A stretch of 64,000 nucleotides of DNA from a phage. How positions within the stretch are numbered: position 1 is the stretch's first letter; each line of letters begins with the position of its first letter. A model generated the notes under the pieces. That model searched no databases, was not told the origin of the DNA, and saw nothing but the letters and a program-made list of their open reading frames with translations. The translations under genes and the position numbers were made by a program. This document shows positions 10,313 to 59,728 of the stretch, in pieces. Location: assembly GCA_024686575.1 (NCBI GenBank), contig GCA_024686575.1_4863.1; one strand, written 5' to 3'.

Positions 10313-10325
10313 GCTCGAACCTCAT

Positions 10326-10342
10326 TATAGAGCTACTCTATA
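10326..10342. repeat. perfect palindrome TATAGAG-CTA-CTCTATA
   Basis: 17-bp element with 7-bp perfect inverted arms in the 34-bp spacer between two small minus-strand genes; operator-like. Confidence 0.5.
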
Positions 10343-10346
10343 ATAA

Positions 10347-21801: not shown

Positions 21802-22218
21802 TTAGTCCTTAAGAGAGTTAATAAAGTCATCTAAACTAATATCACGGAATGGGAAGTAAACACCTTCAAGCGGGATCGTGTAGTGTTCACTAATGGCACG
21901 TTGCCAATCCAGAACAGTTGCGGGGTAGTTCACAACCTCAAAGTTAGGATGCGTAATTGGCGGAATTGCGTTGTAAACATAGCCGTTGATATTTTTCGAT
22001 GGGAACGCTGCACGGAACTTCGGCTCCATGTAGAACATTTCCTCTTTTACTTCCTGGCCTTCCCAGAAACGATAACCGCCCTTACCGTCAGGAATATAAA
22101 TCGCCTTGTCACGGGGTATAGGGGAATCCTTGGATAGCGGAACAAATCGTCCGTACTGGTCAAGAACCATCCAGTCGGTGTCATTCTTTAAATACTTTTG
22201 GAGCTTCTCATTAATCAT
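21802..22218 (-). CDS. hypothetical protein
   Basis: 138 aa ORF; AAGGAA Shine-Dalgarno upstream of ATG at 22218. Confidence 0.65.
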   Translation of the reverse strand: MINEKLQKYLKNDTDWMVLDQYGRFVPLSKDSPIPRDKAIYIPDGKGGYRFWEGQEVKEEMFYMEPKFRAAFPSKNINGYVYNAIPPITHPNFEVVNYPATVLDWQRAISEHYTIPLEGVYFPFRDISLDDFINSLKD

Positions 22219-22228
22219 TTTTCACGTT

Positions 22229-22264
22229 CCTTAGGCAAAAAATAATACCACCCGTAGGTGGTAT
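22229..22264 (-). terminator. rho-independent terminator
   Basis: Stem ATACCACC/GGTGGTAT followed on minus strand by TATTTTTTG; ends the three-small-gene operon. Confidence 0.7.
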
Positions 22265-22277
22265 TAAATTATCTATA

Positions 22278-22466
22278 CTACTTCTTCCCGAGTTCCCCAC
22301 GGAACTTCGCCAGCTCTTCTTTCCAGTCCGGCTTCGGTAGTGCGCTTTTCGGCCCCACGATAAATGTGCGTTCTGAGGTTTGTGGATTCACCTCTACTGT
22401 TTCGTTATCTTCCACTTCACGAAGCATGATTCCGTTTTTACCATCGTAATTAACTAAAACGCCCAT
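22278..22466 (-). CDS. hypothetical small protein
   Basis: 62 aa; AGGAG Shine-Dalgarno 8 nt upstream; start overlaps the stop of the upstream small gene (TAATG); terminator downstream. Confidence 0.5.
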   Translation of the reverse strand: MGVLVNYDGKNGIMLREVEDNETVEVNPQTSERTFIVGPKSALPKPDWKEELAKFRGELGKK

Positions 22467-22648
22467 TAGTAAATCTCCTGCTGCATTGGAAATACATTAC
22501 CTGTCGGTGAGACAAGTAAAACTTGCGCGGTAACGTGAACGATTTCTTCTTCGTCCTGACGACGAACACCGTTAGTGAGATTATCCCACTCACGTTTAAA
22601 ACGCGGGTGAGATAAGAACTCGGCAAACTCCGTATCAGAAAAGTCCAT
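22466..22648 (-). CDS. hypothetical small acidic protein
   Basis: Track ORF 22466-22666; the ATG at 22648 (MDFSD...) overlaps the stop of the upstream 47 aa ORF as TAATG, suggesting translational coupling. Confidence 0.45.
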   Translation of the reverse strand: MDFSDTEFAEFLSHPRFKREWDNLTNGVRRQDEEEIVHVTAQVLLVSPTGNVFPMQQEIY

Positions 22649-22791
22649 TAGCCGCGACCTGTACACATGGCAACAGAGTTACCGTTATCGATGCACTTGT
22701 TGTAATCTTGAGTTACAGTGATGGACAGTACCGCGAAAGCAACAACAGCAACGATGGCAAAGATGGCACGTTTATGGTTACGAGTTAACAT
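22648..22791 (-). CDS. hypothetical small membrane protein (below ORF-track size cutoff)
   Basis: 47 aa hand-translated ORF MLTRNHKRAIFAIVAVVAFAVLSITVTQDYNKCIDNGNSVAMCTGRG; AAGGAG Shine-Dalgarno 8 nt upstream; conserved promoter-like motif about 55 nt upstream. Confidence 0.4.
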   Translation of the reverse strand: MLTRNHKRAIFAIVAVVAFAVLSITVTQDYNKCIDNGNSVAMCTGRG

Positions 22792-22842
22792 GGCAATACT
22801 CCTTTAGATTAATAGTCGATTGAGTTGATAGATTGTCTTCTA

Positions 22843-22868
22843 TCACCTAGGTAATATATATCTGAAAT
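22843..22868 (-). promoter_or_regulatory. conserved promoter-like motif 1 (minus-strand reading contains TATATATTACCTAGGTGA)
   Basis: 26-nt exact repeat TCACCTAGGTAATATATATCTGAAAT shared with 31344-31369; lies between a terminator and the first gene of a small-gene operon. Confidence 0.55.
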
Positions 22869-22984
22869 TATTTTTATTCAGAGTACACCCTCTATAACGC
22901 TCTCAAACGCGTTTTGAGAGCTTTTATCACTATAGAGGGCGTTCTACCGTTAGAGTGGCTTTAGAAGGTTGTGAGTGCGTTTAG
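22869..22984 (-). other. structured non-coding region with nested palindromes (regulatory element or small RNA candidate)
   Basis: CCCTCTATA...TATAGAGGG encloses the palindrome GCTCTCAAACGCGTTTTGAGAGC; followed by three TTAGAG-type repeats; sits between a terminator and promoter motif 1. Confidence 0.4.
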
Positions 22985-23025
22985 AGGGCTAAAATAAAGA
23001 GACCTGGTCTCACAAGGAGACCAGG
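22985..23025 (-). terminator. rho-independent terminator
   Basis: Stem CCTGGTCTC/GAGACCAGG followed on minus strand by TCTTTATTTTAG. Confidence 0.65.
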
Positions 23026-23032
23026 CACACAT

Positions 23033-23830
23033 TTACATCAAATCCAGGCTCTGTGAGACCGCAACTTCCGGTTCACTGATACCGCTGGTCACTGACAATG
23101 TAAAGCGACGATCGTTAATCACTTCAACTGCTTCGCTCGCACGCAGTGAATACTTGTCGGCGATTGGCAGTACACTGTTATCGTTCTGCGGCGGCAGAAT
23201 CTGTGCCGGGAACGGAATGTACGAGTTGAAAGTGATATACGGACCGACCTGCATCATCGGGAACACTTCGTTCACGTTATTTGACATCCCTTCATCCGAA
23301 GAGATAACGGAGTGACGCAGACAGGCACGCAGGCCAACGGTGTACTCCGGATCGCGCGATTCGCCGATCAGTGCGAAACGGAACACATTGAAATCGTAGT
23401 CGTCTGCAGCGAAGTGTTCTGGCAGGATACGCTGTACGTATTCAGGGTAAGTGGTCACGTCACCCGGAATAACATTCACGGCGAGTTTCTGTGCCAGGAA
23501 ATACGCATTCGCGAAACCATACTGACCCGCCAGCGCGGCTGAAATCGGTGCAGTGGTTACGCAGTGCAGGAACAAGTGATAACCCAGCCCGCCTTTATCT
23601 TCGATTGCCAGGTCCTTCTTACTCTGCACACCGTCAGCAGTATAAATAACTGCCACTGTCTTATCCAACGTCGACGCCATGACAAAATCCAACTGCACCT
23701 CACCGCTCTGCGGTAGTACCTTAACCAGACGATCCCAGAGCTTGGTCGGTTTGGTGAAGTTAGCGGCTTCGTACGCATCAATGTCGAGAACAGTTTGGCC
23801 GGTCATGCGAAAGGTGTGAATCGCTTTCAT
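23033..23830 (-). CDS. hypothetical protein
   Basis: 265 aa ORF; AAGGAA Shine-Dalgarno; terminator downstream. Confidence 0.7.
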   Translation of the reverse strand: MKAIHTFRMTGQTVLDIDAYEAANFTKPTKLWDRLVKVLPQSGEVQLDFVMASTLDKTVAVIYTADGVQSKKDLAIEDKGGLGYHLFLHCVTTAPISAALAGQYGFANAYFLAQKLAVNVIPGDVTTYPEYVQRILPEHFAADDYDFNVFRFALIGESRDPEYTVGLRACLRHSVISSDEGMSNNVNEVFPMMQVGPYITFNSYIPFPAQILPPQNDNSVLPIADKYSLRASEAVEVINDRRFTLSVTSGISEPEVAVSQSLDLM

Positions 23831-23873
23831 TGCAATATTTTCCTTAAGGTTACTTACGGGTCATACTAGATGA

Positions 23874-25187
23874 CTAAGCTGTAAATTTTTCATCTTTGAG
23901 CCAAAGACTCAGTTGTGATTGGGTGTTATAGCGTCCTGATGCCATCGTTTGACCATCGACAGCGGACTGGAACACTTCACCCACCAACGTGCCGTAGCGG
24001 GTATAGACCCCATACTCGTTGGCAAAAACGTATTTTACTGGCATACCGGGATATAGGATGCCGTGCGTTGAACGGTTCCAGGTTGTTTGCACAATCGTAC
24101 CCAGACCCATCTCCAGTTTAGACCGCTGCGGTTTATCGGTATCACTAAAGTGTTTATCAGGATCGATTGGTGCGTTAACCACGCCGCCTGGATACGCAGC
24201 AGGGTCGGCCTGCGCCACAAACTTATCAGGTGTGGTCATACTGATGTCGCCAGGCGTAAATGAACTACTACGCCCATCCAACACACGTACAGACCCTACC
24301 CTGTAACCCGTACCGTGGTTAAGCGCGGCCTGGTCACGGTATTCCAAACTACTGGTGTCGCCGCCACAAATCAGATAGATAACATTACCCGCGATATCGG
24401 TGGTGCGGTCAATGTGAGCAGCCTGTTCACGAGGCAGATTATAGATGACCAGTTTAGGCTTCGTTGTGTTATTAAACTTCAACGAGTCCCAGGGCCGATA
24501 CAGATACCAGCGCTGCAAGTATTGGAAGACCCCAATACCTTTGCTGTAAACACCGTAATGGTTCTGCAGATAATCAAACACGCTTAAGAAGTCTTCGGAG
24601 TCCGGTATAACGATATCACGATATGCCTGCTGTTCTTCCTCGTCGTATTCAATTCCTTTCAACTGCCCCTCTGCAGCCACCCCGTCCGGCAACGTATCCG
24701 CCAGTATCGAGCGTGCCACTGTTAACCCATCGGTTTCGTGGTAGATACCGCCCACTTGACGGTTACGCAGGAACCACATCGACTCATCCATCAGCTCCAA
24801 TGTTACCAAAGCGATAGATTTCTCATCAGACTGACTCAAGAACATCGTCGGTGTTTCCGCGTTGTGGTCGCGGTTATTTATCACGATGCCGCGGTAGTTA
24901 AAGACCCCCGCGATTTTCTGTCCACGACGCAATAACAGCTTTACCTTCAAATCCCCTTCTGCGGACGATGTGATCATTCGCATGTGGCTGTAGGGTATAG
25001 CCAAGGTGAGATGTGTCAATAAACAGATATCGCGCGTAAAGTGACCCGTGTGGATGATAGACAGCATCTTCAACACCGTCACTGGGGCACCGTGCACCGT
25101 GAGGAATATCCCGTAGTCGATAGCCGGTAACCCCCGAGCATTAGCGATGTGACCGTTCGCCATCTGTTGTAACCGACCAAACGACAT
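23874..25187 (-). CDS. hypothetical protein
   Basis: 437 aa ORF in tightly packed minus-strand array 23033-28561. Confidence 0.7.
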   Translation of the reverse strand: MSFGRLQQMANGHIANARGLPAIDYGIFLTVHGAPVTVLKMLSIIHTGHFTRDICLLTHLTLAIPYSHMRMITSSAEGDLKVKLLLRRGQKIAGVFNYRGIVINNRDHNAETPTMFLSQSDEKSIALVTLELMDESMWFLRNRQVGGIYHETDGLTVARSILADTLPDGVAAEGQLKGIEYDEEEQQAYRDIVIPDSEDFLSVFDYLQNHYGVYSKGIGVFQYLQRWYLYRPWDSLKFNNTTKPKLVIYNLPREQAAHIDRTTDIAGNVIYLICGGDTSSLEYRDQAALNHGTGYRVGSVRVLDGRSSSFTPGDISMTTPDKFVAQADPAAYPGGVVNAPIDPDKHFSDTDKPQRSKLEMGLGTIVQTTWNRSTHGILYPGMPVKYVFANEYGVYTRYGTLVGEVFQSAVDGQTMASGRYNTQSQLSLWLKDEKFTA

Positions 25188-31302: not shown

Positions 31303-31343
31303 ATTCCTTAAGTGATAGTCGGTTAAAAGATTACCAATGCAAT

Positions 31344-31369
31344 CTCACCTAGGTAATATATATCTGAAA
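31344..31369 (-). promoter_or_regulatory. conserved promoter-like motif 1, second copy
   Basis: Identical 26-mer, with partial conservation of the next 15 nt; located after the paralog-1 terminator and about 50 nt upstream of the ATG at 31302. Confidence 0.55.
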
Positions 31370-59713: not shown

Positions 59714-59728
59714 AGATAATATCTATCT
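59714..59728. promoter_or_regulatory. conserved motif 2 in divergent intergenic region
   Basis: Exact 15-mer between the RNAP beta-like gene start (59683) and the plus gene start (59750); could serve either or both. Confidence 0.5.

Follow-up and report, generated by a model that had tools for sequence, protein, structure and literature searches.

The question raised by the 241-bp spacer at positions 22792-23032 of the phage contig GCA_024686575.1_4863.1 is which of its many repeats and palindromes are control elements in their own right and which are by-products. The stretch of the contig analysed here, the window, is 64,000 nucleotides long; it is a SPN3US-like jumbo phage, 98.6% identical to SPN3US (a Salmonella jumbo phage, genus Seoulvirus) across positions 22000-24000. 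A preliminary description made from the letters alone had noticed nested palindromes and short direct repeats in the spacer and had proposed a regulator-binding array, a small structured RNA or an origin-like element. The spacer separates two genes that both lie on the minus strand, and its gene sense is therefore the minus strand. Read in this direction, it comprises a terminator, degenerate TCTAAA-type units, a nested palindrome, an AT-rich stretch with an early-promoter motif, and a 5' hairpin with the ribosome-binding site. The promoter motif begins approximately 125 bp past the terminator, and in between lies a conserved 42-bp element, a minus-strand direct repeat of three units of which the preliminary description saw only the palindromic half. 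On balance, we take the spacer to be a composite intergenic control region and not a gene for a structured RNA.

A conserved array of three direct repeats

The array is located at 22885-22926 on the minus strand and consists of three units of 10-11 bp, (AAAAGCTCTCAAAAC) GCGTTTGAGA GCGTTATAGAGGG TGT, of which the second and third (GCGTTTGAGA GCGTTATAGAGGG) form the right arm of the palindrome in the window. The family to which it belongs has the consensus AAAAnCGCTTAGAAyGCGTTnnAGAGCGTTTTAGAGGGTAT (approximately 42 bp). When a profile was built from 22 arrays with the window left out, nhmmer matched the window over the full length of the family (minus strand 22926-22885, profile positions 3-44, E = 2.4e-9, 32.7 bits), and the only other notable match in the 64 kb was an adjacent reverse copy. 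The unit motif, scanned for as GCGTTTGAGAGCG and as GCGYTTAGA, occurs elsewhere in the window at chance frequency, as do clusters of two units.

The orthologous spacer was located through the homolog of SPN3US gp201, the product of the upstream gene, by tblastn on phage records and by scans of IMG/VR and metagenomes for related loci. The array is conserved at the orthologous site in at least six genus-level clades, comprising Seoulvirus (pEa_SNUABM_29 and SPAsTU), Machinavirus, Erskinevirus and Wellingtonvirus as well as the metagenomic clades L026, L050 and L058-62. It has there the form (A)AAGCGCTTAGAAy GCGTTnnAGA GCGTyTnnAGrGG and is preceded by a terminator and a spacer that cannot be aligned. 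In the SPN3US lineage it is near-invariant and stands 22 bp upstream of the early-promoter motif. Members of Derbicusvirus (Phobos, CR5 and EarlPhillipIV; L020, L021 and L022) have the same terminator and early promoter, but the array is absent and the terminator abuts the promoter.

What is conserved in the array is its sequence rather than a fold. In a consensus fold of 17 clade representatives the terminator hairpin was kept, with 7 of its 10 pairs changed on both sides (compensatory changes), and the method thus detects real structure; the array yielded only a 4-bp stem without covariation. Conserved long-range pairing of the third unit with a CTAAACGC-like box just past the terminator was considered and rejected: an upstream complement to this unit is significant in only 6 of 24 lineages (the window, Caitlin, L107, L058, L193 and a plasmid), and in some lineages the CTAAACGC-like box takes the form of a direct repeat. 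The appearance of inverted copies is thus sporadic, and they are not a defining part of the element.

The nested palindrome

The palindrome spans 22888-22939, with the centre AAACGCGTTT. Its outer arms are CCCTCTATA (22888-22896) and TATAGAGGG (22931-22939) and its inner arms GCTCTCAAA (22899-22907) and TTTGAGAGC (22913-22921), with the loop CGCGT, so that the gene sense (22939-22888) reads CCCTCTATA gtgataaaa GCTCTCAAA acgcg TTTGAGAGC gt TATAGAGGG. The structure noticed earlier is real: the minus strand folds at -30 kcal/mol (z = -5.5), none of 200 shuffled sequences being as good, and the plus strand has z = -4.6. Apart from one metagenome contig (L056), however, no other sequence compared has the perfect 9-bp outer stem of this isolate. 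At the outer arm SPN3US and the other relatives have CCCTCTAAAG or CCCTCTGAAG, so that a mismatch follows after at most seven contiguous pairs, and one further pair is lost in Proteus phage 7.

Variable columns were counted per segment in ten aligned sequences of the SPN3US group, the close relatives of the window. They amount to 1 of 40 in the terminator, 8 of 44 in the distal reverse units, 8 of 31 in the left arm of the palindrome, 1 of 29 in the loop and right arm and 0 of 50 in the spacer with the promoter. In total, 16 of 75 columns vary in the left arm and distal repeats, whereas 2 of 119 do so in the terminator, right arm and promoter. Conservation in related phages, part of the refutation test proposed earlier, gave a divided answer, the right half being strongly conserved and the left half not. 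One arm is frozen while the other drifts, which is not the evolution of a selected helix. We regard the palindrome as a young, lineage-specific by-product.

A rival reading is that the nested hairpin could be a functional RNA of the SPN3US lineage, for instance a small RNA, a second barrier keeping late read-through away from the early promoter, or a site in read-through transcripts for RNase III processing or for stability. Both strands give a very stable, non-random fold, the pairing is kept in all ten close relatives (96% of cells paired, ten cells unpaired), and three transitions at paired positions preserve G-U pairing in the gene sense. On the plus strand (22899-22930) the inner hairpin is followed by TTTTATCACT and has a terminator-like score, in a place where no nearby plus-strand gene needs a terminator, and 5'-UTR-derived and intergenic small RNAs have been reported in the related jumbo phage 201phi2-1 (PMC11512511). 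Against this, pair counting in the close relatives found no pair changed on both sides, the variation is mostly confined to one arm, and the palindrome is absent outside the SPN3US species group although the sequence of its right arm is present there. Furthermore, no Rfam family matches (best E = 3-6, with scores far below the gathering thresholds), no U-run follows the hairpin in the gene sense, and a hairpin placed between a strong terminator and the promoter motif may be barely transcribed. Only the terminator has a structure conserved across genera, and we consider a functional RNA at this site, a small structured RNA included, unlikely.

How the palindrome may have come about can be read from its left, promoter-distal arm (22915-22945, minus strand), in which unit 1 is rewritten to complement unit 2 and approximately 13 nt are inserted. 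Compared with the consensus AAAAGCGCTTAGAAyGCG the window has AAAAGCTCTCAAAACGCG, and the three substitutions make unit 1 an exact complement of unit 2 (TTTGAGAGC). Compared with pEa_SNUABM_29 and SPAsTU it has the extra approximately 13 nt CCCTCTA(T/A)AGTGA, the first nine bases of which are the reverse complement of unit 3. All the changes, three substitutions and one insertion, raise complementarity, which is the signature of a template switch correcting a near-palindrome. On this account, unit 1 would have been replaced, within the SPN3US lineage, by a complement of unit 2, a reverse-complement copy of unit 3, approximately 13 nt long, would have been inserted upstream, and the template switch would have turned a near-palindrome into a perfect one. 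Such corrections through template switching in replication are known as Ripley-type mutations. The present case resembles them in its three clustered substitutions and templated insertion, all of which raise complementarity to the adjacent units, and differs in that the comparison has two outgroups only and no intermediate forms were seen.

The three TTAGAG-type repeats pointed out in the preliminary description exist as well. They belong to a degenerate, reverse-oriented copy of the triple-repeat motif at 22947-22994 on the plus strand, GTTAGAGTG GCTTTAGAAG GTTGTGAGT GCGTTTAGAGGGC (direct-repeat families D1 and D5), which is the second-best profile match in the window, at a marginal score (E = 0.08, 8.9 bits). 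The plus strand reads GGCTTTAGAAG GTTGTGAGT GCGTTTAGAGGGC, and the gene sense (22994-22947) contains CCCTCTAAACGC, CCTTCTAAAGCC and ACTCTAACGG, the complements of the TTAGAG-type repeats. The copies of family D1 at 22953-22968 and 22973-22988 are 81% identical and 20 nt apart, and TAGAGGGC is present twice. The distal repeats may represent a decaying reverse-oriented copy of the whole array.

The CTCTATA/TATAGAG element had also been reported to recur as a palindrome at 10326-10342. This palindrome is real (10325-10343, perfect 8-bp arms TTATAGAG-cta-CTCTATAA) and lies between the convergent gp185 and gp186 homologs, with no T-run on either strand. A link to the spacer motif was rejected: only a 7-mer is common to both and the motif profile has no match there. 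It is probably a separate hairpin signal unrelated to the motif. In the window as a whole, CCCTCTATA-like words are not enriched (9 found, 7.0 expected).

Accessory genes at the array

In at least five related phages (pEa_SNUABM_29, SPAsTU, pEa_SNUABM_4, pEa_SNUABM_6 and L047/L065) the array runs directly into the start codon of an accessory gene, e.g., GCGTCTGGAGGCtattcgcATG, and in several relatives its last unit (…AGAGGG or GGAGG) is the Shine-Dalgarno sequence of this gene. The open reading frame (ORF), 131-137 amino acids long, codes for Nlig-Ia (PF22745, E = 1e-23 to 1e-28), the NAD+-binding domain of DNA ligase, as a stand-alone domain. Such genes were located in L002 (2040-2435, minus strand), L003 (1606-2010, minus strand), L018 (2155-2565, plus strand) and L017 (2132-2545, plus strand); the one in SPAsTU is annotated as 'putative DNA ligase'. 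The gene is patchily distributed and is a candidate NAD-related counter-defence gene. In relatives that carry it, the early promoter follows the gene. In the SPN3US lineage, including the window, the gene is absent and the array is orphaned.

The array can also precede another gene. Jumbo phage phiEaH2 has a second locus (L120 1215-1259, ORF start at 1259), where the array GCTTCTGAGAGCGTTTTAGAGGGTATTA-ATG stands before a Dam-like methylase gene (MIKPILKWMGGKSR...). A single genome can thus use the motif for more than one kind of accessory gene.

In Machinavirus-like phages (L004, L015, L017, L018, L019 and L050) a second, semi-conserved box, GAT(T/C)(T/C)ATCGT(C/A)T, precedes the array by approximately 15-25 nt, and in pEa_SNUABM_29 and SPAsTU this box is inverted (CGATAAATGA). 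It could be a core promoter for array-led genes.

Alternatively, the whole stretch from terminator to promoter might be a neutral scar, the leftover 5' region of a deleted Nlig-Ia gene, with the palindrome as a by-product of repair. This would account for the same-genus relatives in which one or two additional genes stand here, the array serving as their ribosome-binding region, for the fast evolution of the left half, and for ChrisDB, which keeps the leader TATTACAC up to the would-be ATG together with the 3' end of the gene, TTTGATTAAAAA, and looks like a clean deletion. A relic, however, would have decayed. The array is near-invariant in the SPN3US group, its 42 bp recur in unrelated phages and plasmids, and it is kept in at least seven lineages without the gene at genus-level divergence (gp201 homologs 47-58% identical), where the adjoining spacer is scrambled and cannot be aligned. 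Since it persists without the gene while the spacer around it is scrambled, the array is under selection in its own right, and a scar appears an improbable explanation.

Distribution beyond jumbo phages

A search with a 43-nt consensus retrieved 438 phage records; in 217 of these the match covers at least 80% of the consensus length. Motif identity across phage records and plasmids was 85-95%. In T5-like phages, including phiR2-01, the motif is part of the terminal repeat, where it opens the non-coding repeat region (the injection-stop region); in the rV5-like phage PVP-SE1 it follows a terminator, and the FelixO1-like phage Wc4 carries it as well. Besides the second locus of phiEaH2, it is present in other jumbo-size contigs. 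Approximately 1400 plasmids carry the motif, most of them conjugative and 30-58 kb in size (the one inspected is IncX-like), and it is also found in chromosomal islands of Escherichia coli. Degenerate pattern scans of IMG/VR gave mostly matches at chance level, the extended matches being restricted to jumbo-size contigs.

The motif is intergenic and in the same orientation as the downstream gene in the window, in all jumbo-phage copies examined, in PVP-SE1 and phiR2-01, in the IncX-like plasmid and in the chromosomal island; one copy in Wc4 has the opposite orientation. No downstream gene family is shared across the motif loci, the downstream genes being mutually unrelated. A name for the motif was not found in the literature on the T5 injection-stop signal or on IncX repeats, nor by searching for the sequence string.

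The IncX-like plasmid pRb23_3 (L192 3499-3720) has one good and two degenerate tandem copies of the motif over approximately 220 bp; on one side lies the origin region with its iterons and DnaA box, on the other a relE/parE toxin-antitoxin operon. In the terminal repeat of Yersinia phage phiR2-01 (L189 1859-2003 and 1935-1954), the motif and a partial copy approximately 115 bp further on flank TACTGTATAAATATACAGTA, a near-perfect LexA-box-like palindrome, and repeated units of the AATGCGAATGATTCTCATT type, resembling Fur boxes, are found further on.

Possible function of the array

Of the three readings offered in the preliminary description, a regulator-binding array fits best, but it fits the 42-bp direct repeat (22926-22885, minus strand) and not the palindrome or the TTAGAG-type repeats, neither of which is the conserved unit. 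It would work as a directional element recognized by its primary sequence, situated where transcription and translation start or immediately upstream. Its most likely role would be that of a docking site for a factor that enterobacterial hosts have in common, or of a portable promoter-leader cassette. We favour a DNA element or unstructured leader, positioned where a transcription unit begins, that a common factor would read. With a spacing of 10-11 bp, the units all face the same side of the helix. No polymerase and no neighbouring genes are common to the carriers; what they have in common is enterobacterial hosts. Alternatively, a portable promoter-leader cassette may still drive transcription after the loss of its cargo gene.

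Taken further, and as a tentative proposal only, the 42-bp repeat might be an undescribed class of cis-elements of enterobacterial mobile elements, through which incoming DNA exploits a host factor for its first expression or entry, the palindromes formed repeatedly around the motif being by-products. With the same reserve, the class would extend from jumbo phages of the nucleus-forming type and phages of the rV5-like and FelixO1-like groups to the T5-like injection-stop region, to chromosomal islands and to plasmids of the IncX type. As these have no polymerase or neighbouring genes in common, their common reader would be a host factor.

Several observations weigh against the main reading of the spacer and its 42-bp repeat. 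To our knowledge, no transcription factor or sigma factor consensus fits the motif, and an informal comparison with the LexA, PhoP, PmrA, OmpR, ArcA, MetJ, boxA, ops and SPO1 late-promoter consensuses produced no convincing likeness. The 42 conserved positions exceed the needs of a typical factor site. Outside the jumbo group, phage sequences downstream of the motif show no enrichment of sigma-70-like promoters (mean best score 7.6, compared with 7.2-7.7 in three control regions). The profile scan covered 64 kb of an approximately 240-kb genome, and for the rest blastn found one place per genome. The template-switch origin of the palindrome draws on only two same-genus outgroups, and the preservation of G-U wobble in gene-sense RNA by three of three transitions at paired positions (chance 0.125) is weakly compatible with a selected RNA hairpin.

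The motif was also considered as a sigma-70 promoter or a promoter-upstream site, for which individual examples speak. Good sigma-70-like promoters follow it in L193, L137, L077 and Wc4, but there is no enrichment over the controls, and the spacer region of the window has no -35/-10 pair.

An iteron-like replication or priming site, that is, an origin or primosome loading next to a promoter-activated AT-rich region, is very unlikely: although there are 10-11-bp units in both orientations by an AT-rich stretch, a replicative helicase gene approximately 2.4 kb away, a motif approximately 600 bp beyond the iterons and DnaA box of the IncX-like plasmid and, in T5-like phages, a motif that opens a repeat region with eight DnaA boxes (10.1101/866236), the cumulative GC skew declines steadily through 22.9 kb without an inflection, the AT-rich stretch is the recurring early-promoter motif, most lineages have only three units and no long iteron array, the motif runs directly into a start codon at several loci, and no initiator gene is linked.

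Terminator, early promoter and flanking genes

Upstream of the spacer lies the gene for a 265-amino-acid homolog of SPN3US ACQ60_gp201 (23033-23830, minus strand), itself 3' of a virion structural gene. This late/structural operon ends in an intrinsic terminator at 22990-23026 on the minus strand. It had been placed at 22985-23025 before; the terminator itself is confirmed, and the terminator scan assigns it to the minus strand at 23026-22990. A G+C-rich stem-loop (23026-23002; stem CCTGGTCTC/GAGACCAGG, loop CTTGT) is followed by TCTCTTTATTTT, with the U-run CTCTTTATTT. Among the close relatives it is invariant save for one loop base.

The early-promoter motif TTTCAGATATATATTACCTAGGTGA (22843-22867, minus strand) shows no variation among close relatives, and other genera conserve it as well. 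Its core TATATATTAC lies inside a block of 23-25 nt, which recurs at 31342-31364, directly after a terminator, and in a weaker, degenerate copy near 59718. This block is the part of the spacer with multiple blastn matches per genome among Erwinia and Salmonella jumbo phages. Early promoters of jumbo phages are characterized by a highly conserved AT-rich motif of approximately 10 nt near position -10, repeated ahead of presumed early operons (PMC7598289), and the recurring AT-rich motif at 22843-22867 is of this kind. Presumably, TTTCAGATATATATTACCTAGGTGA is read by the virion RNA polymerase as an early promoter, and transcription would start approximately 10 nt downstream of it, early and without the host polymerase. 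In Salmonella phage SPFM2 (L012), a 27-nt tandem duplication, AGATATATATTACCTAGGTGATAGAAG (columns 185-211 of alignment A1), has doubled the promoter core.

At the predicted 5' end of the early transcript there is a stem-loop, GGTGATAGA agacaa TCTATCAAC (GATAGA/TCTATC; 22823-22848, minus strand; inverted repeat I3). Stem-loops of differing sequence stand directly 3' of each promoter copy, in the window at 22823-22848 and approximately 31320-31345 as well as in L002, L004, L005 and L056, and pairing is kept in them (GATAGA/TCTATC, GAGAGTT/AACTCTC and GAGATT/AATCT). This suggests that a hairpin at the 5' end of early transcripts is conserved. The spacer ends with the Shine-Dalgarno sequence AAGGAG (22804-22799) and the ATG (22791-22789) of the downstream gene, both on the minus strand (22789-22804). 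This gene encodes a membrane protein of 47 amino acids, the homolog of gp200 (22648-22791, minus strand), and is the first in a run of small genes with functions unassigned. Scans detected no tRNA or tmRNA, and the small ORFs are only chance ones of 22-29 amino acids.

Similarity to known regulatory systems

Phages of the T4 type reportedly have PeSL (promoter-early stem-loop) regulatory cassettes, said to have been described by Arbiol et al. in 2010. The locus is similar in that a terminator stem-loop followed by an early promoter flanks variable genes and stands at the edge of a region with variable gene content (the one or two genes that separate the array from the next conserved gene are found in some relatives and missing in others), and in that the promoter block is repeated around variable genes. 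It differs in having the jumbo-phage early-promoter motif instead of a sigma-70 early promoter, and in that its terminator and promoter are separated by an additional conserved element, the 42-bp triple repeat, which lies outside the PeSL description.

Helically phased direct-repeat arrays that bind small DNA-bending regulators are represented by the P2 Cox boxes, the 186 Apl sites and the lambda Xis sites. As in these, at least three units of 10-11 bp are aligned along the same side of the helix close to a promoter, and extra units are tolerated in either orientation. In the present array, however, the three units differ in a fixed order and the 42 bp behave as one element, and this element is common to unrelated mobile elements.

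The T5-like Repeat Region 3 (the injection-stop-signal region) is conserved above its neighbouring genes and contains repeats without known function (10.1101/866236). In phiR2-01 the triple repeat TCGCTTAGAACGCGTTTGAGAGCGTTCTAGA is found at the start of this region and is followed by a partial second copy. The region differs in its length of approximately 1.2 kb, its DnaA boxes and its many repeat families, the 42-bp motif alone being common to both, and the two-step DNA injection of T5-like phages is not known for SPN3US.

Implications

As a structured RNA, the palindrome would not merit follow-up. For the array, the position of the transcription start is informative: if transcription starts only approximately 5-10 nt past TATATTAC and the array is without coverage, it would act as DNA. 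The Derbicusvirus phages, in which terminator and promoter adjoin, provide a natural comparison for the contribution of the array. In jumbo phages, the array site is a slot for exchangeable accessory genes (Nlig-Ia, Dam-like methylase), which are candidate counter-defence genes. The unexplained repeat region of the T5 injection stop is now linked to elements in other phages, and the 42-bp sequence offers a concrete probe for a host or shared factor that may act on incoming mobile DNA.

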